Part shown: in pieces, positions 3,664-58,273 of the stretch | How positions within the stretch are numbered: position 1 is the stretch's first letter | Layout: each line of letters starts with the position of its first letter | Assembly: GCA_046290225.1 (NCBI GenBank) | Contig: JBKAGE010000034.1 | Span: 512,001-576,000 of the forward strand | Reading direction: 5' to 3' | Source: Bradymonadia bacterium | Lineage (GTDB): Bacteria > Myxococcota_A > Bradymonadia > UBA7976 > UBA1532 | DNA: 64,000 bases | Translations under genes and position numbers: made by a program | The notes under the pieces: generated by a model | What the model was told of the DNA's origin: nothing | Seen by the model: the letters and a program-made list of their open reading frames with translations, nothing else | Database searches by the model: none

Positions 3664-6297
3664 ATGAAAAAAGAAGTAGTGATCCTCGGCTTCGTGGTGA
3701 TCGCCGCCGCGGCCTTCGGCATCAGCCGTATGACCGCCAGCGACGACGCCCCCGAGACGAACAAGAAGCAGGTGGCCGACACCGCCAAGCCTGCTGACAA
3801 GGCCAACGCCGACAAGGGCGGCGCCAAGGCCCCCGCTGCAGGCAACGCCGCCAAGGCCGTGGCCAAGGGCGGCGACGCCGGCAACAAGATCCCCGTGGGC
3901 ACCAGCTACGGCAAGGGCGGCAACGCCGAAGAGGCCCTCGTGACCATCGTGGAGTTCTCGGACTTCCAATGCCCCTTCTGCTCCCGCGTCAACCCCACGC
4001 TCAAGCAGATCGACGAGACCTACGGCAAGAAGGTCCGCGTGGTCTTCAAGCACAACCCCCTGCCCTTCCACAAGGACGCCCCCCTGGCCTCCGAGGCCGC
4101 CCTCGCCGCCGGTGAGCAGGGCAAGTTCTGGGAGATGCACGACAAGCTCTTTCAGAACCAGAAGGCTCTCAAGCGTCCCGAGCTGGAGAAGTACGCCAGC
4201 GAGCTGGGCCTCGACATGGACAAGTTCAAGTCCGCCCTCGACGGCGGCAAGTTCAAGAAGGCCGTCGCCGACGACATGGCCCTCGCCAGCAAGGTGGGCG
4301 CCCGTGGTACCCCCAACTTCTTCGTCAACGGTGTGCAGATCACCGGCGCCCGCCCCTTCCCCAGCTTCAAGGAGGTCATCGATGCCGAGCTGAAGAAGGC
4401 TGAGGAGATGGCCAAGGCCGGCAAGACCCCTGCCGAGATCTACACCGCCATGGTGAACAAGAACTGGAAGGCCCCCGCCCCCCGCAAGGCCAACCCCAAG
4501 GCCGACGACAAGAGCATCTACAAGGTGCCCGTGGGCGCCAGCTACGCCAAGGGCCCCGCGGACGCTCAGGTCACCATCGTGGAGTTCTCCGAGTTCCAAT
4601 GCCCCTTCTGCTCCCGCGTCAACCCCACCATGGCCAAGATCCAGCAGGAGTACGGAGACAAGGTCCGCATCGTCTTCAAGCACAACCCCCTGCCCTTCCA
4701 CAAGGACGCCTTCCCCGCCGCCCTGGCCTCCGAGGCCGCTGGCAAGCAGGGCAAGTTCTGGGAGATGCACGACAAGCTCTTCGCCAACCAGAAGGCCCTC
4801 AAGGCCGACAACCTGAACGCCTACGCCACCGAGCTGGGCCTCGACATGGGCAAGTTCAAGGCTGACATGGCCGACAAGACCCTCGAGGCCAAGGTGAAGG
4901 CCGACATGGCCCTCGCCCAGCAGATCGGCGCCCGGGGCACCCCCAACATGTTCATCAACGGCCGCAAGGTCGTGGGCGCCAAGCCCTTCCCCGCCTTCAA
5001 GACCATCATCGACGAAGAGGTGAAGAAGGCCGACAAGCTGATCGCCGCCGGCACCGCCAAGGCTCAGGTCTACGCCAAGCTCACCGAGAAGGGCCTCACC
5101 AAGGCCGCCGCCCCTGCCCCCAAGAAGCGCGCCGAAGACAAGACCATCTACAAGGTCCCCGTCGTCGCCGACAGCTGCAAGGGCCCCGCTGACGCCCTGG
5201 TGACCATCGTGGAGTTCTCCGAGTTCCAATGCCCCTTCTGCAACAAGGTGCTCCCCACCCTGAAGCAGATCGAGAGCACCTACGGCAAGGACGTGCGCGT
5301 GTGCTTCAAGCACAACCCCCTGCCCTTCCACAAGGACGCCCCCCTGGCCAGCCAGGCCGCCATCGCCGCCGGCAAGCAGGGCAAGTTCTCCGAGATGCAC
5401 GACAAGCTCTTCGCCAACCAGCGCGCCCTCAAGGCCGACAACCTCCAGGCCTACGCCAAGGAGATCGGCCTCGACATGGCCAAGTTCAACGCCGATCTCA
5501 ACAGCGACGCGGTGAAGAACGTCATCAAGCAGGACCAGGCCCTCGCCACTCAGATCGGCGCCCGGGGCACCCCGAACTTCTTCATCAACGGCCGCAAGCT
5601 CGTGGGCGCTCAGCCCTTCGCCAGCTTCAAGGGCGTGATCGACGAGCAGAAGAAGGCCGCCGAGGCCCTCGTGGCCAAGGGCACCGCTCGCGCCAACGTG
5701 TACGCCGAGCTCACCAAGAACGGCGCCACCAAGGCTGCCGCCCCCGCCGGCCGCAAGGCCCCCGAGCCCGACAACAAGATCTACTCCGTGAAGGTGAACC
5801 CCGGCGACGCCATCAAGGGCAACAAGAACGCCAAGATCACCATCGTGGAGTTCTCGGACTTCCAATGCCCCTTCTGCTCCCGCGTCAACCCCACCATGGA
5901 CCAGATCCAGAAGGAGTACGGGGACAAGGTCCGCATCGTCTTCAAGCACAACCCCCTGGCCTTCCACAAGGACGCCCCCCTGGCCAGCCAGGCCGCCCTC
6001 GCCGCTGGCGAGCAGGGCAAGTTCTGGGAGATGCACGACATGCTCTTCGCCAACCAGCGCGCCCTCAAGCGCCCTGAGCTGGAGAAGTACGCCACCGAGC
6101 TGGGCCTGAACATGGACAAGTTCAAGTCCGCCCTCGACAGCGGCAAGTACAAGGCCCAGATCGACGCCGACATGGCCCAGGCCCGCGAGCTCGGCGCCCG
6201 TGGCACCCCCACCTTCTTCGTCAACGGCAAGAAGGTCCGTGGTGCTCAGCCCTTCGCCGCCTTCAAGACCGTCATCGACGAGGCGTTGAAGAAGTAA
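3664..6297 (+). CDS. Exported DsbA-family (thioredoxin-fold) protein with four tandem CPFC domains
   Basis: N-terminal hydrophobic segment, 4x 'VTIVEFS(D/E)FQCPFC', 4x 'FKHNPL', 4x 'GARGTP' cis-Pro loop, and strong C-ending codon bias. Confidence 0.92.
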   Translation: MKKEVVILGFVVIAAAAFGISRMTASDDAPETNKKQVADTAKPADKANADKGGAKAPAAGNAAKAVAKGGDAGNKIPVGTSYGKGGNAEEALVTIVEFSDFQCPFCSRVNPTLKQIDETYGKKVRVVFKHNPLPFHKDAPLASEAALAAGEQGKFWEMHDKLFQNQKALKRPELEKYASELGLDMDKFKSALDGGKFKKAVADDMALASKVGARGTPNFFVNGVQITGARPFPSFKEVIDAELKKAEEMAKAGKTPAEIYTAMVNKNWKAPAPRKANPKADDKSIYKVPVGASYAKGPADAQVTIVEFSEFQCPFCSRVNPTMAKIQQEYGDKVRIVFKHNPLPFHKDAFPAALASEAAGKQGKFWEMHDKLFANQKALKADNLNAYATELGLDMGKFKADMADKTLEAKVKADMALAQQIGARGTPNMFINGRKVVGAKPFPAFKTIIDEEVKKADKLIAAGTAKAQVYAKLTEKGLTKAAAPAPKKRAEDKTIYKVPVVADSCKGPADALVTIVEFSEFQCPFCNKVLPTLKQIESTYGKDVRVCFKHNPLPFHKDAPLASQAAIAAGKQGKFSEMHDKLFANQRALKADNLQAYAKEIGLDMAKFNADLNSDAVKNVIKQDQALATQIGARGTPNFFINGRKLVGAQPFASFKGVIDEQKKAAEALVAKGTARANVYAELTKNGATKAAAPAGRKAPEPDNKIYSVKVNPGDAIKGNKNAKITIVEFSDFQCPFCSRVNPTMDQIQKEYGDKVRIVFKHNPLAFHKDAPLASQAALAAGEQGKFWEMHDMLFANQRALKRPELEKYATELGLNMDKFKSALDSGKYKAQIDADMAQARELGARGTPTFFVNGKKVRGAQPFAAFKTVIDEALKK

Positions 6298-6500
6298 GCT
6301 CCGGCGCTGCGGCTCTGTGGCCCGCCATCTGAGTGGCGATTTGGCGCACAGAGGCGGCGCTTCCCTCCTCGACGCAGCGCTGCTGCGCCTGCGGGTGAAT
6401 CACCACCCCTGCACACCAACTCACCCCTCAGCTGACGACCCCCAGAACCTCCGCGCCTCCGCGGGGCACGTGCGTGTGTGGGTTGTGGCTCTCTTGGGGT
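6298..6500 (-). repeat. Dispersed structured element, copy A (53-nt arm / 33-nt core / 53-nt arm)
   Basis: Arms 6311-6363 and 6397-6449 are imperfect inverted repeats. Core 6364-6396 and the flanks are shared with the copies at about 37.0 kb and 50.3 kb. Confidence 0.85.
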
Positions 6501-30940: not shown

Positions 30941-33220
30941 TCAGCGGCTCAAGCCCATCAACCACACCTGAGCGGCGTGGGGCGGCGAGACCTGGCCCGT
31001 CACTCGGGTGACCTGTGTGTAGGTGCCATCGGGTTGGAGCAGCCAGGCTTGGGTGTCGTCCTTGAGATAGCTCAGCAAGCCCTCTTCTTTGATCCGGAGG
31101 AACAGCTCGGGATCCTCCACGGGGAAGCAGGCCTCCACCCGGCGGTGGAAGTTGCGCTCCATCCAGTCCGCAGAGGCGCAGTACACGACCTCGTCGCCGC
31201 CGTTCTCGAAATAGTACACCCGGGTGTGCTCCAGGAACCGGCCGACGATGGAGCGCACGCGAATGCGCTCGCTCAGTCCGGGCACGCCAGGGCGCAGGCA
31301 ACAGATGCCCCGGATGATGAGATCGATCTCCACCCCCGCCTGAGAGGCTTGATACAGCTGGGCGATGATGGCGGGCTCGGAGAGCGAGTTCATCTTGGCG
31401 ATGATGCGGGCCGGGCGCCCGGCTCTGGCGTGCTCCATCTCGCGGCGGATGTGCTCCACCATGGTCTTGTGCAGCCTGAAGGGGGCCTGGATCACCTTCT
31501 TGAAGGCGGTCAACCGGCCCAGGCCCGTGAGCTGCATGAACAGCTGGTGCACGTCGTGGCCCAAATCGGGATCCGCGGTCATGAGGCTGAAGTCGGTGTA
31601 GGCCTTGGCGGTGCCGGAGTGATAGTTCCCGGTGCCCAAGTGCACATATCGGCGCAGGCGGTTGCCCTCGCGGCGCACCACCAACAAGAGCTTGGCGTGG
31701 CACTTGTGCCCCACCACCCCGTACACCACGTTGGCGCCGGCCTCCTGCAGCTTGGTGGCGAGCCCGATGTTCGCCGCTTCGTCGAAGCGTGCCCGGAGCT
31801 CCACCACCGCGGTGACCTCCTTGCCCGAGCGGGCGGCCTCGATGAGGGCCTCCACGAGGGGGGACTTCTTCCCGGTGCGATAGAGCGTCTGCTTGATGGC
31901 CAGCACATCGGGATCTTGCGCCGCCTGTCGCACCATCTCCACCACAGGCGCGAAAGCGTCGAAGGGGTGGTGAAGCAACAAATCGTGCTTGCGCAGCGAG
32001 GCGAAGATGTCGGCCTTCTCGGACAGCCCTTCCGGCAAGCCCGGCGTAAAGGGGGTGTACTTGAGCTCGGGGCGGTCGACGAGATCGCACAAGGCCACGA
32101 GACGGTGCATGTTCACCGGGCCGTTCTCCCGGTAGAGATCGGCCTCGCTCAGCGCGAAGCGGCCCAGCAAGAAATCCACCATGTGCTGAGGGCAGTTCGC
32201 CGCCACCTCGAGGCGCACGCCGTCACCGAAGTTACGGTTCGCCAGCTCGCCCTTGAGGGCTCGGAGCAGATCGTCCACCTCTTCTTCGTCGACGAAGAGA
32301 TCACTGTTCCGAGTGACGCGGAACTGGTGACACCCCGTGATCTTCATGCCCGGGAACAGCTCACCGATGTGGGCGTGGATCACCGAGGAGATGAGCACGA
32401 AGTCGTCGGCCTTCCCCGAGACGGTCTCGGGGATCCCGATGATGCGGGGCAAGCACCGCGGCACCTGCAGCACCGCCACCCCGGAGTCGCGACCGAAGGC
32501 GTCGAGGCCCTCGAGGGACACGATGAAGTTGAGCCCCTTATTGAGCACACGAGGGAACGGGTGGGCCGGATCGAGGCCCATGGGCGTCAGGACCGGCAGG
32601 ACCTCGCGCTCGAAATACTCCTCGATCCAGGCTGCCTGCGCCGCGTCCCAGACCGACCGCTTGAGCAGGCGGATGCCCACCTCTTCAAGGGCAGGCAGAA
32701 TGTGCGTGTTCAGGGTCTCATACTGCTCGGAGACGAGGCCATGGGCGGTGTCGCTGATGCGCCGCAGGACCTCCTGGGGAGAGCGACCGTCAGGGCCCGT
32801 CTGGTTGAGACCGAAGGCCACCTGCTGCTTGTACCCGGCCACCCTCACTTCGAAGAACTCGTCGAGGTTCGAACACGAAATGGTGAGAAACCGCAGGCGC
32901 TCGAGCAAAGGCGTCGCCGGGTTCCGGGCCTGATAGAGCACCCGTCGGTTGAACTCCAGGACCGACAGCTCACGGTTGAAGAAGTCATCGGGGGTGACCG
33001 TGACGTGACCACCGAGGCCTTCGTAGATGGAAGGCGGCGCAGCGCTCTCAGAGGCATTGCCCTTCGCCGCCCGCCCCTTGGTGAGGGCCTTCCGCGGCGC
33101 CTTGGCGCTGGCCTTGCGCGTTGCGCCCCGAGTGGTGACGCGACCCCGGCGGGCGCCCTTGCTGGTGGACTTGGCCGCCTTCGAAGATGGGGCCTTCGTC
33201 GTCTTGTCGCTGGTGTTCAT
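30941..33220 (-). CDS. ppk1: Polyphosphate kinase 1
   Basis: 'NRELS', 'SNLDEFFEVRVAG', 'HPFP', 'KQTLYRT', 'ARFDE', 'HLGTGNY', 'AKMNSL', 'RFLEH', 'SADWM.RN'. Confidence 0.97.
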   Translation of the reverse strand: MNTSDKTTKAPSSKAAKSTSKGARRGRVTTRGATRKASAKAPRKALTKGRAAKGNASESAAPPSIYEGLGGHVTVTPDDFFNRELSVLEFNRRVLYQARNPATPLLERLRFLTISCSNLDEFFEVRVAGYKQQVAFGLNQTGPDGRSPQEVLRRISDTAHGLVSEQYETLNTHILPALEEVGIRLLKRSVWDAAQAAWIEEYFEREVLPVLTPMGLDPAHPFPRVLNKGLNFIVSLEGLDAFGRDSGVAVLQVPRCLPRIIGIPETVSGKADDFVLISSVIHAHIGELFPGMKITGCHQFRVTRNSDLFVDEEEVDDLLRALKGELANRNFGDGVRLEVAANCPQHMVDFLLGRFALSEADLYRENGPVNMHRLVALCDLVDRPELKYTPFTPGLPEGLSEKADIFASLRKHDLLLHHPFDAFAPVVEMVRQAAQDPDVLAIKQTLYRTGKKSPLVEALIEAARSGKEVTAVVELRARFDEAANIGLATKLQEAGANVVYGVVGHKCHAKLLLVVRREGNRLRRYVHLGTGNYHSGTAKAYTDFSLMTADPDLGHDVHQLFMQLTGLGRLTAFKKVIQAPFRLHKTMVEHIRREMEHARAGRPARIIAKMNSLSEPAIIAQLYQASQAGVEIDLIIRGICCLRPGVPGLSERIRVRSIVGRFLEHTRVYYFENGGDEVVYCASADWMERNFHRRVEACFPVEDPELFLRIKEEGLLSYLKDDTQAWLLQPDGTYTQVTRVTGQVSPPHAAQVWLMGLSR

Positions 33221-33230
33221 GGATCTGCTC

Positions 33231-33719
33231 TCAATGCTGCCCGTCGCCCATCAGGCGCAGCGCCTTGGGCGGCATAAATCCTCGGAGCACCATCCCTCCA
33301 GGGCGCGGTTGACCCTCGAGCCAGGCCACGCCCCCCTTCTTGAAGAGGAAGGCCCCGCCAAGGGCCCTCGGCCCGAGACACAGCTGGGCGGCGAGGTCGC
33401 TCATCCACGGCTCGTGGCCCACGAGGGCCACGTGGGCCCCTTCAATGGCCTCGAAGAGGGCGGGCCCTGGCGGCGCCGCCAGGGCGTCGAGGGTGTGCCT
33501 CGCCCCTTCGGGGTGGAGCGGTGCCAGCAGCTCGGCGGTCTGAACCGCACGACGCCAGGGGCTGTGATAGACCGCGTCAAAGGCGATCTCCATACAGGCG
33601 AGACCCCTGACCCCCTGTTCAAAACGAACTCGGCCTTCGTAGGTGAGGGCCCGCTCGGCGTCGGAGGCGCCTGGCAGCCGGGGCTCTGCGATGGCGTGTC
33701 TGATGAGATAAACGTGCAT
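33231..33719 (-). CDS. sixA: SixA-like histidine phosphatase
   Basis: 'LIRHAIA', 'SPWRRAVQTA', 'LVGHEP', 'FKKGG'. Confidence 0.85.
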   Translation of the reverse strand: MHVYLIRHAIAEPRLPGASDAERALTYEGRVRFEQGVRGLACMEIAFDAVYHSPWRRAVQTAELLAPLHPEGARHTLDALAAPPGPALFEAIEGAHVALVGHEPWMSDLAAQLCLGPRALGGAFLFKKGGVAWLEGQPRPGGMVLRGFMPPKALRLMGDGQH

Positions 33720-35644: not shown

Positions 35645-36651
35645 CAGCCCTCGTCATAGAGGGCCGCGGCCTTCTGAAGGCGCGTCCGCATGGCAGCCCG
35701 GGCCTCTTCAGGGGCCAGAATCTCCACACGGTCCCCGAGGGGCAGCAGCCTGCTGAAGATCTCCCCCTGGTGGGCGCTCACGTGGGCCACGAGGCCCTCC
35801 GGGGTCTCTTCGAGGCGCTGCTTGGGGTGGAACGGCGCGTCCCGCACCCACGAGGAGACGGAGACATCGAAGCGCACCACGAAGTCTCGCACCGGGCCCG
35901 ACTTGAAGCCGGTCAGCCCGTCGCCAAAGCGCTCCGAGGGGTCGAAGTCGAGATCAGGCGTGAACCGCGTGTCCAGCGCAGTGGCCCGCTCGAAACGGTC
36001 GAGCTTGTACATGCGCACCCGCCGGTCTTCAGGGGCATCTGGCACCGCAGCGAAGAGATAGATGCTGCCCCCAGTGAGCACGACGGAGCGGGGCTCCACC
36101 ACACGCTCGATGTGCTCACCCTTGCCGTTGACGTAGGCGATCTCCAGGAGTCGGTGCTGCATGATGGCCCGGTTGAAGGTGGACAGCATGCCCCGCTTGT
36201 CGGCGTAGTTCCGGGGCGGGGTGGTGTGGATGTAGAGGGCGCGCCGTTGCCGCTCGAACTGCCTCAACACGGGCTCGGGCAGCTGCTCTTCGAGCCTGCG
36301 CCACAGCAGCTCGATGCCTTCTCCGAAGGGGGTGTCCACCAACGGCGTCAGCAACGCCCGCCCTGCAGAGAGTCCCATGAGTTCGAGGGCCGAGAGCGTG
36401 ATTTGGGGTGCCGATTTGAGGCCCGGCCCGGCCTTCCAGACGGTCCCCCGCTCCTCGGCGTCGGTGTCGATGTCGAACCCGGCAGCCTGGAGCGCTTCGA
36501 GATCTCGCCGCACGGTCCGCTCGGAGAGCGTGGCGAGGCCCAGGTCATCGAGGATGGCCTCCCTCAGTTCGCCGAGCGTGTGCCCATAACGGGCCCTGGC
36601 GAGACATTGTACGAGGCGGTGTTGGCGGATGAGCTGATCGTTGCGAGCCAT
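35644..36651 (-). CDS. WYL-domain transcriptional regulator (wHTH-WYL-WCX; YafY/PafB/DriD-like)
   Basis: HTH 'SERTVRRDLEALQAAGF' and WYL region 'IAY...RVVEP...IYLFA...RMYKLDRF', followed by a C-terminal WCX-like segment. Confidence 0.9.
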   Translation of the reverse strand: MARNDQLIRQHRLVQCLARARYGHTLGELREAILDDLGLATLSERTVRRDLEALQAAGFDIDTDAEERGTVWKAGPGLKSAPQITLSALELMGLSAGRALLTPLVDTPFGEGIELLWRRLEEQLPEPVLRQFERQRRALYIHTTPPRNYADKRGMLSTFNRAIMQHRLLEIAYVNGKGEHIERVVEPRSVVLTGGSIYLFAAVPDAPEDRRVRMYKLDRFERATALDTRFTPDLDFDPSERFGDGLTGFKSGPVRDFVVRFDVSVSSWVRDAPFHPKQRLEETPEGLVAHVSAHQGEIFSRLLPLGDRVEILAPEEARAAMRTRLQKAAALYDEG

Positions 36652-36770: not shown

Positions 36771-36802
36771 CGGGCACGGGCACGGGCACGGGCACGGGCA
36801 CG
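36771..36802. repeat. Hexamer microsatellite (CGGGCA)x5
   Basis: Five perfect CGGGCA units plus CG, about 120 bp upstream of the WYL gene start. Confidence 0.9.
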
Positions 36803-36943: not shown

Positions 36944-37113
36944 GGCCCGCGGAGCTGCGGAGGGCTCGGGAGTGGGTGTCAGCGTCGTGAGGCGTGGTGG
37001 CTGAGTGGTGACTCAACCGCAGGCGCAGCAGCGCTGCGTCGAGGATTGCGGCGCCGCTCAGACGCCGCGCCTCACGACGCTGGCGCCCGCTCACGAGGCC
37101 GTAGCAGCGGAGC
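36944..37113 (+). repeat. Dispersed structured element, copy B
   Basis: Arms 36962-37014 and 37048-37100, core 37015-37047 (AACCGCAGGCGCAGCAGCGCTGCGTCGAGGATT). The 3' end overlaps the last codons of the DUF932-like gene. Confidence 0.85.
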
Positions 37114-38164
37114 CCACCAAGTGGAAGTCGGCGAACTCGGTCACCTGCTCCGCCGTGCCCTCGAGATCGTACTCCTCGCTGATGAGGGTGCCCACGTAGG
37201 CTTGCAGACGACGGGCCCCAGCCTCGTTGGCGTGGTGGGTGGCCACCTCGGTGGCGAAGTTGAGCAGATCGTACACCCGGCAGCGGGCGGGCAGGATGCG
37301 CAGGCGCTTCGTCGACAGCGCGTTCAGGTTGGCCAGCCCGTACATCCCCGCCAGATCACCCACTGTGCGGCGGAAGTCCATGAAGGTCTGCATGGGGTTC
37401 ACAAGGCCGTTCTCCTGATCCGCTCGGGCCAGGTAGCGCTGCAGTGTGATGCACTCCTGCAGCGATGCCCAGGAACGCTGCGACGCCTCGAAGCGCTGGC
37501 GCATGGCATCGTAGCCATCGGGGTTGTCGAAGCCGTTCAGGGCGCGGGCCACGCTGTGCACGGGATCGTTCCCTACGGCGATGTCGGTGCGGAACACCTT
37601 GCTGTAGGCCACCATACCGTTGGAGCACACCTGCCGGAGCATCGAGAGGTGGATGCGGGGCTGGGTCCAGCCGTCGATGGGCAGATCGACGAGGAAGCGG
37701 TTCTCGAAGGCGTCACCACCGATGTCGAAGGCCATGTCGCCACTGCGGGGCACCAGCGTGCTGGTCACCACCCCGTTGCCGTACTGCACGTCGGCGCCGT
37801 GGCTGTTGCGCACCAGGCGCATGGCGTCTTCGTAGTGCAGGCTGGCCTTCGTGGGGTTCGTCACCGCCAGGAGGGTGCCCTTCCCTGCCTCACCGCGCTC
37901 GATGCAGAAGTTCACCGCGGCGTTCCCGGTCTCCTGAGCGATGCGGTTAAAGACCTCGTCGTGGGTGAAGTAGCGGAAGATGCGCTCCGACACCCCGAAG
38001 CGGTGGAAGAAGCTGGTCCAGAAACGGTTGCTGGCCTTGAGCGACTCGCCGTTGAGGGCGATGCCCGTGGCCTGATGCTTCTGGTTCTCCTTGCGAGCCT
38101 CCACCTGAAGGTCGCGGACGCGGGCCTGGCCGTACTCGAAGCTGGTGTTGTTGATGGCGTTCAT
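37091..38164 (-). CDS. DUF932-like protein of unknown function
   Basis: 'LRQVCSNGMV' resembles the R-x-x-C-x-N-G signature of DUF932-type proteins. Strong SD 'AAGGAG'. Confidence 0.55.
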   Translation of the reverse strand: MNAINNTSFEYGQARVRDLQVEARKENQKHQATGIALNGESLKASNRFWTSFFHRFGVSERIFRYFTHDEVFNRIAQETGNAAVNFCIERGEAGKGTLLAVTNPTKASLHYEDAMRLVRNSHGADVQYGNGVVTSTLVPRSGDMAFDIGGDAFENRFLVDLPIDGWTQPRIHLSMLRQVCSNGMVAYSKVFRTDIAVGNDPVHSVARALNGFDNPDGYDAMRQRFEASQRSWASLQECITLQRYLARADQENGLVNPMQTFMDFRRTVGDLAGMYGLANLNALSTKRLRILPARCRVYDLLNFATEVATHHANEAGARRLQAYVGTLISEEYDLEGTAEQVTEFADFHLVGSAATAS

Positions 38165-50054: not shown

Positions 50055-50174
50055 ATGAGCGGACGGCCGTGCTTGCGCACCGCCTGTAGCGGACGGTCAT
50101 CGCCTGACGGCGACAGCCTGTAGCGGACGCCTGCTTCGCAGAGCTGTAGCGGACGGCGCTGACGCGCCTGTAGC
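50055..50174 (+). repeat. Short array of CTGTAGCGGACG direct repeats separated by unique self-complementary spacers
   Basis: Repeats at 50084, 50118 and 50144, a partial one at 50168, and a degenerate one at 50055. Confidence 0.8.
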
Positions 50175-50235
50175 TAAAGAGAGGCTTCAGGACTCTCCCC
50201 ACCCCACCTCTCTCCCTCATCCCAAAGAGCCTACA

Positions 50236-50503
50236 AAGCCATAACCCACCTATGCCCGTGCCCCGCGTAGGCGCGGAGGTGGCAGCAGTCGTCGTGAGGT
50301 CGGTGAGGTCTCGTTCAGATGCGGGCTTTCACCCGCAGGGGTAGCAGCGCTACCCCGAGGACGGAAAGGTCGCAGCTGGGCGGGAGATCGCCGACCTCAC
50401 GACGGCTGACGCCACCGCAGCGCCGGAGCAAAAGGAAAGGTCGCAGCTGAGCGGGAGATCGCCGGAGCAGAGAGCGGCTGACGCCGCCGGAGCGCCGGAG
50501 CAA
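50236..50503 (+). repeat. Dispersed structured element, copy C, with a duplicated right arm
   Basis: Arms 50278-50330 and 50364-50416, core 50331-50363 (ACCCGCAGGGGTAGCAGCGCTACCCCGAGGACG). 50363-50431 is repeated at 50434-50503. Confidence 0.85.
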
Positions 50504-50506
50504 GGC

Positions 50507-53500
50507 TTAGTCCCCCTCAGGCTGGCCATCATCGGGGCCTGGCTCGAAGACATCAGCACAGAACTCGGGGTTCGGGTAGGGCGGGTTGATGTCGCGGAAG
50601 GCCGGCACCAGGCACTCGTTGTAGCTCCAGATCGCCGTACAGCGGGTCGAGCGTGCTTGGAACAGTTCCAAAGCCCCCACCACGTCGTCGCGCTCGTTGA
50701 GCAGGCGTAAGCCGCTCTCTCGGAGCACCTTCACCTGAAGCGTCACCGGGTTGTTGGGACCACAGATGAACTCCAGACGCATCTCCGAGAGGCCCGTACG
50801 GAACCGCACCGCCTCAGCGAGACAGGCTTGCCAGTTGCGTACATAGACCCCTTCAGTGTTCGCGCCATAGAGGCTCGAAGAGAGGTCCATCAGATCGAGG
50901 ACCAGCTCCAGAGCGTCGCGATCACCGATGCACAGCTCGTCTTCACACTCCACCCCCACCGGCACGGCGAGGCGTGTCTGGATGTCTCTCAGAGTCACCA
51001 GGGCATCGATCACGCTCTCCCGGCCCGGGCCGGTGAGATCGAGCTCTGCATAGGCCTGAAGCTCGAGGCCGAGGCCTGCGATGGCCTGGTTCAAATCATC
51101 ATTCACCGGCTGAGTGGCCAGGGAGCGATCCACCAGGTCCTCGATGTCGGGGATGGCGAAGTTGTTGTACGACCGCTGACGGCACGCATCAGCAGCATCG
51201 TGCATGTAGAACCAGGCTTCGTTGAGCGACTGCCACAAATCGTTGGCGGCAAAGGCCTGAATCCCACCGGAGACCCAGCCCTCGAAGTCGGGATCTTCGA
51301 ACATCGCCCGGCCCGCATCCAGGAAGTCCCGAGCGCGCCCCACCGACGGGTGCTCGAGATCTACCACCGGATCACCCACTGGGGGCTCCACCATGATCAG
51401 CCACTGCTCGTCCAGAGCCCGCATGTGCTGGCGCATGAGGATCCACAAGGTGTCGTCCAGGCGGGCGCCGAGGCCTTGCGCGCTCACCATCAAGTTGATC
51501 ATGACGCGCGTCGCCACCAGCGTATTGCCTCGGCGGAGGTTCGATTCGCCCCAGAGGCCCAGCTCGATCCAGGGCTCGAGGTTGCCGAGCACCGAGGCCA
51601 CCAGGGGGCCGTCGTCGAGGGCCCCAGCCCGCTCACCCACGAGCTGCAGCGTCTCGCTCATGCTGATGGGCCGCACCAGAATATCCTGGGTCTGCACCAC
51701 CACCGAGTCGGTGTCACCCACCGTCACGGTGACGGTGTACACACCCGTGTCACGCCAGCTGTGCTGAACCTCGTTCAAGTCTTCACCCGAAATGGGATCC
51801 GAGCCGTCGCCGAAGTCCCAGGTGATGCTCTGGAGCGGATCCCCTTCCTCCCCGGCTTCTGCCTCGATGGAGAAGGTCCACATGGCGGCCTCGTAGATGT
51901 CCTCCGGCACCTCGATGTCCGAGATGATCGGGATGGCGTCGCGGATCTCCACCGGCACCAGCTGTGTCGTGGCCCCATCCTCGTCTCGAACCGTGAGCAC
52001 CACCGTGTAGACACCATTCTGGGCGTAGGTGTGAACGGGCTGAGTCAGGTTGGCACCACTCACCTCGGGGGAGCCGTCGCCAAAGTCCCAGATATACTCG
52101 GTGATGAGATCCGCCTGAGATCCTGGGCGGGTGGCCCGAGCGTCGAACTCGATGGGACGCCCCTGCAGGCCCGAGTACGGACCCCCAGGGCTCACGATGG
52201 GCGCCACCTCGCGCACTGAGACGTTCACGGGACCTGTGGCGCTCGTACCGAAGCTGTCAGTGACGCGGAGGCTGCCCGTGTACTCACCAGAGTCGAGGGG
52301 CACGAAGGCCACCTCTTCACCCACCAGCTCGTACACCCCGTCCAGGTTCATGTCCCACTCGAAGAAGACCACCTGATCTTCCAGCTCTGGCGGCTCGGAG
52401 CCCGAGCCGATGAGCGTGATCGGGCGACCCTCGGCGCCGACATAGGGACCACCGGCCACCACGATGGGCGGGTTGTTCACGCGGAAGTTACGCTGTTGGG
52501 TGTATCGGTCACCGTGGCAATTGAACAGGCTCAGCTCGAACCGGTACTGCCCGGGCAGAGCCAACGCCGAGCCTTGAGCGTAGACGAGGTTGAGGGCACC
52601 CACCTGCACGCTGGCCGACTGACCAGCGACACAAGCTGCCGGAGCCTCGACATCCCAGCTGAACGACGCCTCAGGGACCACATCACCGTTCTCAGGGCCT
52701 TCCAAACTGAAGGGCACCTCTTCCGCCATGAGCCAGTTGCGGGTCAGGCTGCTCTCGTTGCCGCAAGCATCCACCGCGGTGATCTGGAGCGTGCGCAGAC
52801 AGGCATCTTCGCTGATCTCCTGGGTGATACGCGGCGCAGGATCGACGACGTCGACGGCAAGCACCGAGGCCTCGGGCACTCGGCCGGGCTCGAAACATGC
52901 CCCTTCAACCAACAATGGGTTGACGCCGATCACCGGCGCCGTACGGTCGAAGGCCACCAGACCACCTGGGGTGATGTCTGCGCTCTCACCCTCATCGTTC
53001 GTCGCCGTAATCACCACCGTGCGGCTGCCCTCGACAGCCTGAGCAGCGTTGATGGGGATCTCGACCTCGAGGGCACTGCCGTCTTCGGGCAACACCACGT
53101 TGGCGGCGCCGACGATCAGGCCATCCACCTTGGCGAGCACACCCACGGCCCCACCACCCTGCTGGCGCAGAGAGACCCGGAAAGGTCCGGGCGCCACGCC
53201 CACACAATCTCCACCGCGAGGCCAGAGCAGCTCGCCAGCGGGGGGCAGCTTGAGGCGTACGCGTACCTCGGCCTCAGCAGAGGCCGACCACTCGCCAAAG
53301 ACGTCACGCCCTCTCACCCGCACCACCTGGGTGGTCCCGGTACGCCAGTCGGGCGATCGATAGTTGCGAATGATCTCACCGACGTAGTCGCTGCCATTGA
53401 GCTCCCCGGCGCCGTTGATGTCATCGGCGCCATAGAGGCCATCGTTGTCGGTGTCCCATGCGTAGGCGATGATGTTGTCGCACGGGGCATTAGGATCGAA

Positions 53501-56500
53501 CGATGCCCGAGCGTCGAGATCGACGCTGGCGAAGACTCCACGCACTCGGGCGGTGACATAGGGGCCACCGGCATCCGCCACGGGCCGCACATTGGCGATG
53601 TCCACCCCCACGGTCACCTGGTCAGTGCTCGAACGACCCTGGGCGTCCACCACCCTCAGGGTGGCCGTCACCTGACTCTGAGCGATGATCGGGTGGGAGA
53701 TCTCGGCGCCGCTCCGCTCAAAGGTGCCGTCGCCGTCCATATCCCAGAGGTACTCGACGATTTCGAAGTCATCGTCGCCTGCAGGGGCGTCGACGATGCT
53801 GTTGGTCCCGCTGAAGCGCACCTGCTCGTTGCAGCCTGCCGAGGCCTGAGAGGCTTGAGCCACTGCCACGGGGGGACCAGAGATCCAGAGACGGGTGGTG
53901 TCCGTGGCCACCCGGCCGAAGCGATCCTCCACCGCCAGGGTGATGTTGTACTGACCCGGCGCGTCGAGACCCGCCTGAGAGAGCATCGCCGGCGAGATCA
54001 GGGGGTAGGCGCCATTCACATCGAAGGTGCCGTCACCGTCCAGATCCCAGCGATAGCCCACGATGGTGTCGTCGCAATCAGCATCGGGATCCCGGCTGCG
54101 ACGGCCATCGACCCGCACGCTGTCGCCGAGGGCGATGGTGTAGGGCCCCGAAGCATCGGCCTGAGGCGAGCGGTTACCCTCGGTCACGTCAACGGTGAAG
54201 GGCATCGTCGCGCTGTGGCCTTGAGAGTCCTCTACGCGCAGGCCCAGGGCGAGGGGGCCGTCGAAGGTGTAGGCCCCAAAGCGGGAGGTCACCCGCTCAC
54301 CCACGGCATCATCGTATTCGCCGTCTCCGTCGAGATCCCAGGTCCAGGACACCACATCGACTTCGGGGTGAGGCTGAGTGGAGCCACTGGCGTCGAAGGA
54401 GACCAGCCCCTCGCATTCGGCAGGGTTCGGGCCCACGACAGCCACCGCCACAGGATCAGGCAGGTGCAATGTGGCCTCGGTCTCCGCGGTGTTCGTGCGA
54501 CCCGTGAGATCTTCCACCTCGAGGGTGACACGATAGGTGCCCGGCTCGATCCAGCCTGCGTCGGCCATGGCCTCCACCGAGACATCGACCACAGCCTCCT
54601 CACCATCGCCGTCATCGTCCTCCACCACGATGTCCCATACACCGTCATCGTTGAGGTCCCAACGGTAGAACCGGATGAAGTCGGCGGGATCAGGATCGAA
54701 GGAGGCCGAGGCGTCGAGCTCTGTCGCTTCCCCGACGAAGAGGTGGTAGCCACCACCGCTGCCGTTGATCGGGCCGCCGACGTTGGGACCCCCCACGCGC
54801 TCGTCGGGGTGCGCCACCGCAGTAGGCGGCGTGAGATCGGGCAGGCCGATGAGCACCTGCTCGCGAATGCTGTTGCTGCGACCTTCGGCGTCTCGAACTC
54901 TGAGCCGCACAAAGACCAGAGGGGGCTGATCCGGCAGTGGGGCGAAGACGCGGACCAGCTCGGTCGTGGGGCTGTCCTGAGTCTCGAAGACCCCGTCATC
55001 GTTGAGGTCCCAGTCGAACTCGACGATCTCCAGGCCCGGCACCGGCGAATAGCTCGCCCGGGCGTCCAGGGTGATCCGGCTCTCGTTGTTGAGCGGGTTG
55101 ATCGTGCCCGGATCAGGCGACTGGAACATCAGCGGCACTGGCCGGGTCTGATAAATGCGGATGCCGGCCTGGGTGACATGGCTCGCCCCCTGGCTGTCGG
55201 TCACCCGCAGAGCGATCAAGTTGGTGGGATCACCCGTCTCGCGATCAGCGGGCCAGCTCATCTCGCTCAGCACCGCCCAGGGCAAGGTGATGCGCTGCCC
55301 GCGCAGATCGCCGGCGTCGTCGAAGCTGCCGTTGTTGTCGATGTCCCACGCGTACTCCACGATGCTGTCACCACATCGGAAGTCAGGATCAGACGAGGGC
55401 GAGCCGTCCACGAGGAGCGACGAGCCGTCAGTCACCGTGTAGATCGCCTGAGTGGTGGCCGCCGTGGGCGAACGGTTGCCCTCCGTCACCGCCACATTGA
55501 AGTTGGTGGTGTGCGTGCGGCCGCGATCGTCGGTCACCGTGAGGCTGGCGGGGAACGTCGAGAACCGATTGTAGGTGTAGCTGAAGTCGGAGTTGCCACC
55601 CACGCCCTCGAAGCCCGGATCAGGGTGCACATCCCAGGCGTATCGCACGATGCGGCGCTCGGGGTTGGGGTGGCTGCTGTCGTCCCCGTTGAAACGTACG
55701 GGCTGCAGGCAGGCAGCAGGCTGAGGGTTCACCCGAGGCACCGCGATGGGATCACGGGGGTAGATGGTGAGGGTGCCCTGAGCCACCGCCACTCGATCCG
55801 TGCCGTCCACCACCCGCAAGCGAATGGTGTGCTCTACGCCCAGAGGCAGAGTACTCAGGCGATCCCAGGGCACCTGCGGGTTCAGGCCATTGGCGTCGTC
55901 GTACTGGCCGTCGTTGTCGAGATCCCAGGTGGCGGTAAGCGTGTCGCCACAGTTCAGGTTGGCATCCTCGGCGCTGCCCTGAAGCGAGAGAGAGGCGGTG
56001 GCCTCCATGGTGTATGGCCCGCCGGCGAGGGCAGAGGGCGCCGCCGCCGGGGATCGGAGCACGTTCACCGTGGTGGTGGTCTGCTCAGAAGACACCCCGT
56101 CGGGATCATCATCCAAAACCCTCAACGTCACCGTGTAGATGCCCGCCCGATCGTAGGTGTGGTTGATGAGCGTGGAGCCGTTGTTCGTTTGATGATCGAC
56201 TGGGGCGCCAGTCTCCCACCAGAGGCCATCGCTGGCGTCCACATCCCATTGGAACGTGGCGATCTGCCGGTCACGGTTGGGATGGAACGACTGTCGATGA
56301 TCCAGAGCCACCTGACCGGCCCCGCCGCCGCGACACCCCTCAACGACTTCATTGGGCTGCACCGCCGCCAGAGGTACGGGCTTGGGCTTGAACAGGGTCG
56401 GGGTGATCGTGAGCCCGGCCCAGCCCGTCGTGAGGGTGGGTTGAGCATAATCGATGGTCACCGACCGGTTGGTGGACCAGGTGTCCCTGATGATGCCGAA

Positions 56501-58273
56501 GTTCTCGTAATCGTTCAGGTGACGGGACTGAGCACGGTTGTAGTAGGTGTTGAACTCGGTGACCCAGTCGTGGCCCCCCATGTCGAGGAGCTCGGGGCTC
56601 CCCGTCCGGTAGCCCTTTTGATGAGAATACATCGCGTAGGTGTAGCCACAGGTGGGGGCGTTGTAGACCCCCACAGGCGTACCGCACAGATAGTCGCCCA
56701 GCTGAAAAAGCCCTGCCGTCCAGTGAATGCCTTGCAGGTTCGGCGTGGACCAGTGGCGGCTCGTGTACGACACATAACGGTTGTACATGTCGACCAGCTG
56801 GGTCTGGGTCAGGGTCGAATAGGGCGCGAAGGGCTGGGTGTTGTTGCGCTCCATGTTGTGGATGCCCAGCCAGCGTGCACCGACGAAGGCCCCACCGGTC
56901 AGGTGGAAGTCGTGCCGACTGCTGTTCTTGTGGCTCGTGCGATAGCTCGAAGCACCATGAATGCTCTGGTTCTCGTAGAGGTTGGTGGCGATGCGGTACT
57001 TGTGGCGGTTGTTGACGATGACCCCATAGGGTCCGCCAGCCACCTCGGCACTCTCGAGGCCGATGTAGGCCCACTGCGCCGTCGACGCATCCATACGATC
57101 GCATGTGGTGGGCGTCTGGTTGTTGCCGTAGAGCCAACCACCATAGGAGCAGCCCCCGTCGTGCTGGATGTAGCCGAGGTAGTCCACGATCTCCTGGACG
57201 TACTTCTCATAGGGCTGAGTGCGGATGGTGTTGTTGGCGTTGCCCACCTGCACAGGGGTCCCTGCGAGGCTGGGCAGCACGGTGGCGATGGACCCGAGGC
57301 CCAAGCCCACCATATAGGTGCCGCTGTTGTTTCCGATCCAGGCGCCGCCATTGTTGTTGGTGTTGGTGATGCGGTTGCAGCGACGCTCGCTGCCATCGGG
57401 GTTCCAGCCACAGGTGTTGTCTTCGTCACCTGAGCCGGCGATGGAGCCGCTGGTCCAGAGATAGGCCCCATCACCCACCTGGATCGAGAAGTTCAACCCT
57501 CGGGCGATGGTCTCTGCGTACGGATCGTCGTGCCAGCGCGTGTCATTGGCTTCGTGCCACCCTTCAGGTAAAGCCCGCCCAAAGGTGTTGATGCCCCCTG
57601 GTGGATAAGCAGGCTGGCGGCCGTTGGCGGTCATGGCCCAGACCATGGCCATGTTCGCCGCCGCCTGATACGTACCACCCCTGCTGTGGGGCAGCGCCGC
57701 GGTGATTGCGCCTCCGCTGCCGGCGTATTGCCCCATGTGCCGATGCAACCACCAGAGCGTCTCGTGCACGGTCAGGGTGGTCATGATGTCGAGCTGATCA
57801 CGGGTCCACTTCGTCGGATCAGACGAAGGGGTCCAGTCATAGACGAACATGCGGAAGGTGCCGAAGGTCTCCTCAGCAGGATTGCAACGGCTCACCGCCC
57901 GCACATCGATGGTGATCGTCTTGCCGTTGTCGACCGTGGGCACCTCGTAGGTGCGACCGAGATCATAGATCGTGTTCGTGCCGGCCACAGGCACGACGTG
58001 GCGGCTGGTCTCGTCTCCGAAATTACGGTTTCGGTTGGTGTCCCAGGCCACATCGTACCCCGCGCCACAGGTGGCGTTGCGCATGATGGCCTTCAGAGTG
58101 ATCCGGGCATACTCGTGCACCGGCCAGGGCAGCTCGAGATTGTTGGGCGCATATGGGACAGGCAGGATCTCGGGCGCTTGCGCCTGGGCATCTTCCGCGG
58201 TCCACATCACCCCCACCATGGCGAGTAAGACCAGTAATCGGGACGGGCCAGTCCGCGAACACACCTTCTCCAT
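50507..58273 (-). CDS. Giant secreted PKD-repeat protein (about 2590 aa): N-terminal helical prenyltransferase/terpene-cyclase-like region, PKD stalk, conserved Cys-containing C-terminal domain
   Basis: SD 'GGAGGG', signal peptide ending 'AQA-Q', more than 12 'Y.WD(L/F).GDG'/'AGGPY' PKD units, and 'GGWLY...DASTAQWAYIGL'. Confidence 0.85.
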   Translation of the reverse strand: MEKVCSRTGPSRLLVLLAMVGVMWTAEDAQAQAPEILPVPYAPNNLELPWPVHEYARITLKAIMRNATCGAGYDVAWDTNRNRNFGDETSRHVVPVAGTNTIYDLGRTYEVPTVDNGKTITIDVRAVSRCNPAEETFGTFRMFVYDWTPSSDPTKWTRDQLDIMTTLTVHETLWWLHRHMGQYAGSGGAITAALPHSRGGTYQAAANMAMVWAMTANGRQPAYPPGGINTFGRALPEGWHEANDTRWHDDPYAETIARGLNFSIQVGDGAYLWTSGSIAGSGDEDNTCGWNPDGSERRCNRITNTNNNGGAWIGNNSGTYMVGLGLGSIATVLPSLAGTPVQVGNANNTIRTQPYEKYVQEIVDYLGYIQHDGGCSYGGWLYGNNQTPTTCDRMDASTAQWAYIGLESAEVAGGPYGVIVNNRHKYRIATNLYENQSIHGASSYRTSHKNSSRHDFHLTGGAFVGARWLGIHNMERNNTQPFAPYSTLTQTQLVDMYNRYVSYTSRHWSTPNLQGIHWTAGLFQLGDYLCGTPVGVYNAPTCGYTYAMYSHQKGYRTGSPELLDMGGHDWVTEFNTYYNRAQSRHLNDYENFGIIRDTWSTNRSVTIDYAQPTLTTGWAGLTITPTLFKPKPVPLAAVQPNEVVEGCRGGGAGQVALDHRQSFHPNRDRQIATFQWDVDASDGLWWETGAPVDHQTNNGSTLINHTYDRAGIYTVTLRVLDDDPDGVSSEQTTTTVNVLRSPAAAPSALAGGPYTMEATASLSLQGSAEDANLNCGDTLTATWDLDNDGQYDDANGLNPQVPWDRLSTLPLGVEHTIRLRVVDGTDRVAVAQGTLTIYPRDPIAVPRVNPQPAACLQPVRFNGDDSSHPNPERRIVRYAWDVHPDPGFEGVGGNSDFSYTYNRFSTFPASLTVTDDRGRTHTTNFNVAVTEGNRSPTAATTQAIYTVTDGSSLLVDGSPSSDPDFRCGDSIVEYAWDIDNNGSFDDAGDLRGQRITLPWAVLSEMSWPADRETGDPTNLIALRVTDSQGASHVTQAGIRIYQTRPVPLMFQSPDPGTINPLNNESRITLDARASYSPVPGLEIVEFDWDLNDDGVFETQDSPTTELVRVFAPLPDQPPLVFVRLRVRDAEGRSNSIREQVLIGLPDLTPPTAVAHPDERVGGPNVGGPINGSGGGYHLFVGEATELDASASFDPDPADFIRFYRWDLNDDGVWDIVVEDDDGDGEEAVVDVSVEAMADAGWIEPGTYRVTLEVEDLTGRTNTAETEATLHLPDPVAVAVVGPNPAECEGLVSFDASGSTQPHPEVDVVSWTWDLDGDGEYDDAVGERVTSRFGAYTFDGPLALGLRVEDSQGHSATMPFTVDVTEGNRSPQADASGPYTIALGDSVRVDGRRSRDPDADCDDTIVGYRWDLDGDGTFDVNGAYPLISPAMLSQAGLDAPGQYNITLAVEDRFGRVATDTTRLWISGPPVAVAQASQASAGCNEQVRFSGTNSIVDAPAGDDDFEIVEYLWDMDGDGTFERSGAEISHPIIAQSQVTATLRVVDAQGRSSTDQVTVGVDIANVRPVADAGGPYVTARVRGVFASVDLDARASFDPNAPCDNIIAYAWDTDNDGLYGADDINGAGELNGSDYVGEIIRNYRSPDWRTGTTQVVRVRGRDVFGEWSASAEAEVRVRLKLPPAGELLWPRGGDCVGVAPGPFRVSLRQQGGGAVGVLAKVDGLIVGAANVVLPEDGSALEVEIPINAAQAVEGSRTVVITATNDEGESADITPGGLVAFDRTAPVIGVNPLLVEGACFEPGRVPEASVLAVDVVDPAPRITQEISEDACLRTLQITAVDACGNESSLTRNWLMAEEVPFSLEGPENGDVVPEASFSWDVEAPAACVAGQSASVQVGALNLVYAQGSALALPGQYRFELSLFNCHGDRYTQQRNFRVNNPPIVVAGGPYVGAEGRPITLIGSGSEPPELEDQVVFFEWDMNLDGVYELVGEEVAFVPLDSGEYTGSLRVTDSFGTSATGPVNVSVREVAPIVSPGGPYSGLQGRPIEFDARATRPGSQADLITEYIWDFGDGSPEVSGANLTQPVHTYAQNGVYTVVLTVRDEDGATTQLVPVEIRDAIPIISDIEVPEDIYEAAMWTFSIEAEAGEEGDPLQSITWDFGDGSDPISGEDLNEVQHSWRDTGVYTVTVTVGDTDSVVVQTQDILVRPISMSETLQLVGERAGALDDGPLVASVLGNLEPWIELGLWGESNLRRGNTLVATRVMINLMVSAQGLGARLDDTLWILMRQHMRALDEQWLIMVEPPVGDPVVDLEHPSVGRARDFLDAGRAMFEDPDFEGWVSGGIQAFAANDLWQSLNEAWFYMHDAADACRQRSYNNFAIPDIEDLVDRSLATQPVNDDLNQAIAGLGLELQAYAELDLTGPGRESVIDALVTLRDIQTRLAVPVGVECEDELCIGDRDALELVLDLMDLSSSLYGANTEGVYVRNWQACLAEAVRFRTGLSEMRLEFICGPNNPVTLQVKVLRESGLRLLNERDDVVGALELFQARSTRCTAIWSYNECLVPAFRDINPPYPNPEFCADVFEPGPDDGQPEGD

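Follow-up and report, generated by a model that had tools for sequence, protein, structure and literature searches.

An intergenic hairpin family that folds on one strand, abuts gene boundaries with its 3′ end and shares its core with MITEs

What kind of element is a hairpin of about 165 nt that occurs three times between the genes of a 64-kb stretch of a Bradymonadia genome, and what keeps its structure? A preliminary description of this stretch (hereafter the window, meaning all of its 64,000 nucleotides) proposed that selection acts on single-stranded structure, and offered two identities: a multicopy non-coding RNA, or a mobile unit of single-stranded DNA (ssDNA) of the REPIN or HUH type. 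Two open questions are touched by such an element, namely how REP-like repeats reach stop codons and where the internal sequence of bacterial MITEs comes from. We analysed the family in the genome assembly (8.58 Mb in 83 contigs, 64% G+C, 99% complete, with repeats collapsed) and in other genomes. The folding strand is called F and the opposite strand S; ‘family 1’ denotes the element of the window, which has no terminal repeats, and ‘family 2’ a 159-bp MITE family with the same core.

Copies, fold and one-strand selection

The three copies lie where they had first been reported, A on the minus strand, B and C on the plus strand (Table 1). The core pattern matches three times in the window (0.00 expected, from 100 shuffles), and our counts of non-Watson-Crick positions across the 33-nt core and 53-nt arms (A 16, of which 10 are G.T; B 12, of which seven; C 12, of which six) reproduce the earlier hand counts exactly. 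The minus strand of copy A forms one long hairpin (-57.4 kcal/mol with DNA parameters, z -6.3), which the plus strand lacks (-36.3 kcal/mol, z -2.4).

Table 1. Features of the three element copies in the window and of the genes that they adjoin.
Feature	Position	Strand	Remark
Copy A hairpin, ~80-bp stem	6298..6462	- (folding strand)	3′ end touches TAA of left-hand gene
Copy A core, CGCAG / 8-bp stem / 3-nt loop / CGAG	6366..6394	-	pattern match
Copy A 5′ leader, partly conserved, outside hairpin	6463..6500	-	
Gene for protein with four DsbA-like thioredoxin domains	3664..6297	+	stop codon abuts copy A
Copy B hairpin, different subfamily, without recognisable leader	36949..37113	+	
Copy B core	37017..37045	+	pattern match
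Convergent 357-aa gene, without Pfam match	37091..38164	-	enters end of copy B, stops at TGA within element
Copy C 5′ leader	50229..50264	+	
Copy C hairpin	50265..50429	+	
Copy C core	50333..50361	+	pattern match
Tandem partial copies of copy C 3′ arm	50434..50502	+	last ends few bases from next gene's stop codon
Convergent 2570-aa PKD-domain gene	50507..58219	-	stop codon abuts copy C tail copies

Other repeats are found near these copies. A cluster of REP-like repeats starting with GTAG lies just upstream of copy C (window 50085-50175); two 10-mers from it, GTAGCGGACG and GGTAGGCAG, occur 208 and 141 times in the genome, which holds hundreds of GTAG-starting repeats, yet no assembled RAYT gene. 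Tandem GGGCAC hexamers lie near copy B (window 36773-36801), with similar runs upstream of other copies.

That three copies in 64 kb imply many more is borne out by 125 nhmmer hits in the genome, 81 of them full-length at 80 bits or more, and by 122 hits of a covariance model of the core, sister families included (exact core matches number 21). No two of the 81 full copies are identical (median identity 67%, maximum 97%). Conservation peaks at the apex and the loop motifs, with variable arms. The geometry first described (53-nt arms around a 33-nt core) is fixed within the family, where 74 of 81 copies share one gap-free register and seven, with arm insertions of 1 nt or 13 nt, were left out of that alignment; arm length differs in related families. 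The arms pair as proposed, but the hairpin extends beyond them, to about 80 bp in total, by way of two GGA/GGA-type loops; its foot consists of two pairs plus these loops, with a leader on one side only. This leader, 30-36 nt long, precedes many copies, as well as internally deleted forms that still abut stop codons. Twenty copies measure 185-188 nt owing to a 13-nt insert, a mini-hairpin (GGC-N4-GCC plus three bases) located at the apex or, reversed, in the left arm, and also present in several sister-family copies.

Across the 74 aligned copies and some 80 paired positions, 3883 cells are Watson-Crick, 735 G.T and 177 A.C (142 of the latter at three fixed loop positions); the remaining classes are A.G (686), G.G (300), C.C (83), C.T (37), A.A (15) and T.T (4). 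Some G.U positions are almost fixed (69/74 and 68/74), and within the core each arm most likely has a single bulged base. There are also patches in which one arm is the perfect complement of the other. On contig C82, near-identical tandem genes each end in a copy of a different subfamily (33090-33261 and 36201-36374), suggesting independent arrival or conversion.

The proposal that selection acts on a single-stranded fold is supported. Along a minimum spanning tree, 250 of 278 changes affecting both sides of a pair are compensatory, compared with a null mean of 78 and maximum of 106; in a 21-copy alignment, 49 of 70 pairs covary, a level reached in none of 500 shuffles, with all slid controls far lower. 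F is more stable than S in all 81 copies, under RNA and DNA parameters alike. Whether the folded molecule is DNA or RNA can be approached through the 84 distinct isolated mismatches, 81% of which are more stable than the mean of their context with DNA parameters, versus 31% with RNA parameters; lone G.A is the commonest (48/84), and apex loops are mostly 3 nt long. The mismatches (G.T, G.A and G.G), together with three-base loops, lean towards ssDNA in these energy models. The comparison is indirect, because F is 42% G, neither energy model beats a uniform choice (likelihood -205 for DNA, -293 for RNA, -193 for uniform), and G.A pairs occur in natural RNAs too. Between the two identities first offered, ssDNA thus fits better than non-coding RNA, though not under the REPIN label (see below).

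Position relative to gene boundaries

The most distinctive property of the family is its one-sided abutment on gene boundaries. Positions taken from our own gene and tRNA calls place the 3′ end of F against a functional boundary in 80 of 81 copies (68 stop codons, five terminators, three tRNAs and four start codons), facing the end of a convergent gene or tRNA in 74. The 3′ end lies -1 to +8 nt from a stop codon in 53 of the 81 copies, nine more reach a stop after a tandem tail copy, and in five the ORF runs into the element; the remaining 14 flanks, inspected by eye, comprise one stop, five terminator U-tracts, three tRNA ends, four start codons and one unclear case. Random intergenic placement would put 2.5% at stops. 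The 5′ side, in contrast, usually retains a long spacer.

The start-codon cases matter most for the interpretation of this rule. F is the template strand at stops and the coding strand at starts; polarity therefore follows the element, not transcription, and the rule is that the 3′ end comes up against the next feature whose deletion is not tolerated, rather than that the element lies antisense to a gene. At starts, the terminal GGAG of the element occupies the ribosome-binding-site position, as one-sided flank loss would give. Orientation is unrelated to GC skew or replication strand (24/21/21/15).

The adjacent genes are codon-biased, most with usage of the highly expressed type: 61 of 70 exceed the median of 3401 operon-end controls and 30 exceed the 90th percentile (p 4e-14). 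From their sequences we take them to include genes for L27, L31, L33, S4, ATP synthase subunits and glutamine synthetase. The genes next to the element are core genes in contexts of their own, and strand F upstream of the hairpin is C/A-rich relative to controls. A by-eye reading of the leader as dif-like or sigma-54-like was dropped, since its variants do not keep the pattern.

Family 1 shows no excess of target duplications over shuffled partners at k = 3-8. Close-strain sequence from one DNA sequencing run, of which it makes up a small share, consists of short near-identical pieces, none bridging a copy; the search thus yielded no empty site in which recent movement or one-sided deletion could be seen directly.

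The core in MITEs and in other genomes

The same core is enclosed in at least three classes of ordinary MITE. Family 2 comprises 23 copies in this genome, 18 of them 159 bp long; it has terminal repeats, and 15 of the 23 copies show a 3-bp duplication. It lacks the polarity of family 1 (8/23 face a convergent gene). A TA-flanked type with the core also occurs here (TA in 5/7), and in another genome (G041) the core lies within a young 161-bp family with terminal repeats and 6-8-bp duplications in 10 of 12 copies. One core within unrelated terminal repeats suggests that the core came first. Further element types in this genome contain the core. Four family-2 copies (C2:8827-9102, C7:49446-49721, C9:30934-31222 and C35:240484-240772) carry a second hairpin of about 120 nt in the right arm, and another hairpin element with the same core is located at C34:360998-361102, with a second copy at C78:372778-372869.

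Mobile elements also use the hairpin as a landing site. For an IS with 19-bp ends, which we take to resemble IS50-type ends and whose transposase is unassembled, every one of the 20 assembled junctions falls within the apex palindrome and reads as an 11-bp duplication AGCC-NNN-GGCT, although this short motif occurs 371 times in the genome. All six 5′ junctions of a group II intron (Rfam RF00029) fall at the same CTCCG of the element foot or its fragments. At contig ends, at least eight different multicopy elements (including IS ends, the group II intron and rRNA) break the assembly, and their genes are missing.

Outside this genome, a BLASTN search of 40 relatives with copy C, as the preliminary description suggested, returned only two marginal core matches, and a covariance model was needed: under strict filters (105 candidates scored per genome) it places 1-30 sites in 14 of the 40, a patchy distribution. 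Copy number is highest in this genome among the 41 searched. One exact core pattern occurs at 112 or more loci in GTDB, with matches in genomes of Lujinxingia, Persicimonas, other Myxococcota, Thermoanaerobaculia, Alphaproteobacteria, Bacteroidota and Planctomycetota. Among the GTDB matches listed, 95 have enough flank; searched for a terminal stem only 45-90 nt out, 60 have a clear one. The left arm measures 64-71 nt in 53 of those 60, and in 59 F folds more stably than S. A second core variant is found at 125 or more metagenome loci, with arm classes near 47, 58 and 77 nt. The polarity of family 1 recurs among the metagenome matches listed (74, two of them viral, with boundaries and gene calls automatic): 26 of 48 convergent neighbours stop at -2 to +9 nt, and 10 of 25 co-directional ones have their start at a distance of 7-21 nt. 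The exact family-1 pattern has no match in metagenome contigs. Viral contigs hold zero and three loci for two core patterns, and two related elements are without a match in plasmids. The core lies within terminal repeats of two small viral contigs (L242, L244); two other genomes hold BIME-like clusters of tandem or inverted copies (L033, L037, L041), some directly behind tRNA genes.

Several Desulfuromonadales-like genomes carry copies, in both orientations, at the same positions of an operon of speA, nspC and the carboxynorspermidine synthase gene, whose proteins are 80-92% identical across genomes; among eight such copies, 14 of 43 pairs covary. Covariation at fixed positions argues against selection for mobility alone, which does not explain such copies. 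Among 132 neighbour ORFs from other genomes, one matches a copy-bearing gene of this genome, in a different arrangement.

Searches for a mobilising enzyme (Y1, Y2, integron integrase, group II maturase and neighbour ORFs) yielded no consistent partner. Rich in copies as this genome is, its assembly contains no PF01797 (Y1/RAYT) match, no tblastn match with RAYT-like proteins of other genomes, and no Y2 or integron integrase (TIGR02249) match over cut-off; this absence counts against the enzyme-based reading preferred below, but is weak evidence, because multicopy elements collapse at contig ends and the GTAG repeats likewise lack an assembled RAYT. No transposase was found between back-to-back copies or among the neighbour ORFs scanned (119/188 and 84/126). 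Of the relatives, 10 of the 14 that have the module also carry Y1-like genes, as against 8 of the 26 that lack it (kin that are not independent); where such genes were inspected, in five other genomes with the module, it does not flank them. A group II maturase domain is present in only two of the 14 module-bearing relatives. Contig C79 (178000-181500; L001, L002) contains two convergent retron-type reverse transcriptase (RT) genes with a hairpin-forming non-coding region before the first; we judge the RTs to be of myxobacterial retron type and the adjoining ORFs, by sequence, to be SWIM/WGR-like, and neither locus has an nhmmer or covariance-model hit of the element. Elsewhere (L163), a RAYT-like gene has arrays of an unrelated palindrome to its left and right, likely a REPtron.

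Explanations and known systems

Any explanation has to account for many divergent copies, a one-strand fold kept by compensatory change, a conserved core and a fixed 3′-end polarity, along with the lack of terminal repeats and target duplications in family 1, the preference for codon-biased genes and the secondary MITE forms. Our preferred reading, to which we assign a probability of roughly 0.45, is that the element is a non-coding, non-autonomous ssDNA hairpin of REP- or attC-like character, on which a predicted enzyme acts at the 3′ foot, with one-sided loss of flank up to gene boundaries. The strand would extrude in heavily transcribed intergenic DNA; a putative structure-specific ssDNA nuclease or strand transferase, of which an HUH/Y1-like enzyme is the likeliest kind, would cut the 3′ foot and rejoin that end to other DNA. 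By analogy with REP/REPIN hairpins and attC, structure and a small apical motif would be read, not arm sequence. Cutting and rejoining would copy the element, with flanking DNA deleted or skipped on the 3′ side only; flank loss would go on until a further step damaged a gene, leaving survivors pressed against boundaries. Secondarily, the module would have been enclosed by the ends of several IS types, and may now also move as ordinary MITEs. It is unlikely, if worth stating, that all this belongs to an old cross-phylum ssDNA hairpin system with its own processing enzyme, which would read an apical bulged G.A motif, act at the 3′ foot, sculpt intergenic DNA up to gene boundaries, supply ribosome-binding sites, be kept at fixed loci across genera and repeatedly seed MITE families when IS ends enclose the hairpin.

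The preferred reading competes with four others. The host might instead keep the copies as cis-acting RNA or insulators with a role in transcript processing, stability or termination where highly expressed genes begin or end (such as a C-rich leader and strong hairpin stopping antisense read-through), with rare recombination spreading them. The best support for this is the covarying copies at matching speA/nspC/carboxynorspermidine synthase operon positions in several genomes, an operon that holds four copies in the available part of the G. metallireducens record; the strong association with codon-biased genes, the nearly fixed G.U positions and the C/A-rich sequence of F upstream of the hairpin point the same way. 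The element, however, lies in mRNA in both orientations, and the mRNA would hold the poorly folding strand in 74 of 81 copies; the DNA-like mismatch spectrum and 3-nt loops, the lack of a sigma-70 promoter or intrinsic terminator at copy A, the single rearranged match among 132 foreign neighbour ORFs and the persistence at stops of internally deleted copies without the hairpin likewise make a host RNA unlikely. Nor is it probable, in our estimate, that the copies are old remnants of a DDE-mobilised MITE that lost its ends, with arms homogenised by template switching and gene conversion and positions due to deletion bias and purifying selection only. Template switching would erase mismatches and is strand-neutral, and so cannot keep G.T, G.A and G.G at fixed places of one strand, even though the perfectly complementary arm patches indicate that it occurs; deletion bias should affect both sides, yet the 5′ side retains long spacers. 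The occurrence of the core inside true MITEs (3-bp duplications in 15/23, 6-8-bp in 10/12, TA flanks in 5/7) and the different subfamilies behind the duplicated C82 genes are expected on this account; a MITE family of the same genome without such polarity (8/23), the lack of a duplication signal in family 1 and the one core in unrelated terminal repeats, suggesting that the core came first, are not.

Copying by reverse transcription, in which group II intron or retron RT priming or template jumping would add the element to mRNA-derived ends trimmed to a stop or ribosome-binding site, is a decidedly doubtful alternative. Opposite template strands would be needed for stops and starts; no CCA is added at the tRNA 3′ junctions, two in this genome and three elsewhere; and, although two retron-type RTs are encoded here and a multicopy group II intron has inserted into the element foot, neither retron locus holds a copy and only 2/14 module-bearing relatives have the maturase domain. 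Junctions at the borders of the RNA that ribosomes cover, with a linker varying over 0-9 nt, and the preference for highly expressed genes, would fit such copying; so would the order of stop, truncated tail copies and full copy, as expected of abortive synthesis and restart, but the same linker recurs in several tail duplications, which may go back to one event. Finally, the copies could be solitary attC-like sites of an integron-type system or retroposed copies of retron msd. A gene, its stop codon and then an antisense-folding hairpin with purine skew and bulged bases is attC-like anatomy, attC bottom strands lying antisense to their genes, and dispersed msd copies have been reported in the myxobacterium Nannocystis. 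Membership of either class is largely refuted and very improbable: there are no R boxes, integron integrase or arrays, the neighbours are core genes with their own context, and the element has no similarity to the retron loci.

The near-absolute polarity (80/81), at starts as well as stops, and the one recognisable core that ties copies lacking terminal repeats to MITEs of three or more end types make both opening questions testable, with Geobacter as a tractable host. A dedicated enzyme, if one exists, would be a new structure-reading ssDNA recombinase; if none does, what remains is a widespread repeat without a name, on which an IS and a group II intron land and which is useful for annotation. 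Either way it is a real and barely described repeat, whose polarity and shared core in unrelated MITEs would surprise a specialist.

The family had been called unrecognised, which holds for Rfam (no convincing match on the element, with the window at gathering score and 14 and 9 loci at E up to 1 and 0.1) but not for the literature, where a 2009 listing for Geobacter metallireducens contains this core. Aklujkar et al. (PMC2700814) report 24 copies there, Gmet_R1001-R1024, as “predicted short RNA elements”, one shared with G. sulfurreducens; the passages available give a BLAST alignment of 111-116 nt and a guessed role as regulatory RNA, and do not treat fold, strand bias, polarity, range or mechanism. 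The Gmet_R1 palindrome GRCGTAGCGCTGCTACGCC, the same core on the opposite strand, has three exact matches here, always in copies, and is found with up to two mismatches in 29 of 81. Both elements are intergenic and multicopy, and several of the 24 Geobacter copies have the same flanking loop; the arms here are longer and look unrelated in a by-eye comparison with Fig. S1, and most Geobacter copies have the internal loop flipped to the other arm. By the sequence of its core, we would place the element with the Gmet_R1 family.

Like REP, REPIN and BIME repeats in the sections consulted (PMC3733652, PMC12306157, bioRxiv 2021.07.10.451892), the element is extragenic (five of the 81 copies are overlapped by an ORF's last codons), multicopy, chromosomal, hairpin-forming, often near stops, an IS target and without target duplication. 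As described there, REPINs have conserved ends and a variable spacer; our element is a continuous stem of about 80 bp with variable arms and a conserved apex, and has strict 3′-end polarity. REPIN identity was rejected, since the assembly has no RAYT/Y1 gene and the ends are not GTAG-tagged (GTAG near the terminus in only 5/81; CGTC not in the terminal consensus). With attC sites, to judge from the portion available (PMC5027507), it shares structure conserved over sequence, one strand favoured by the same G.T and purine skew as in attC bottom strands, bulged bases and an antisense position beside stops; it differs in having no R boxes (RYYYAAC/GTTRRRY at the foot in 0/81, either strand), integrase or cassette arrays, and in lying also at start codons, terminators and tRNAs. 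Long-hairpin MITEs (ERIC, YPAL/RU-2, Correia and RUP), from what the consulted text says (PMC2229807, PMC3184786), are alike in size (YPAL ~168 bp), long stem-loop and location downstream of genes; family 1 has no terminal repeat or duplication, and the sister families that share its core are themselves MITEs.

MRSC-65-2, in the passage found (PMC11109978), is likewise a single long covarying stem with dozens of copies per genome, in many phyla, and possibly a DNA structure; its repeat UYCCGG occurs in only four (folding strand) plus two (opposite strand) of our 81 copies, with TCCGG on the opposite strand in 70. That study, as far as the passage goes, reports 250 candidates, a Geobacter genome included, and our element may be one of them. 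The portions seen of PMC2996986 and PMC3543383 mention multicopy sequences only in general. Our literature search found the Geobacter listing and the MRSC passage; the text available gives no account of fold, polarity or shared MITE core, and the G. bemidjiensis, P. carbinolicus and PMC11109978 supplements may list the family. The core itself is not new; relative to the literature found, the novelty lies in the polarity and in one core common to MITEs with unrelated ends and three duplication types.
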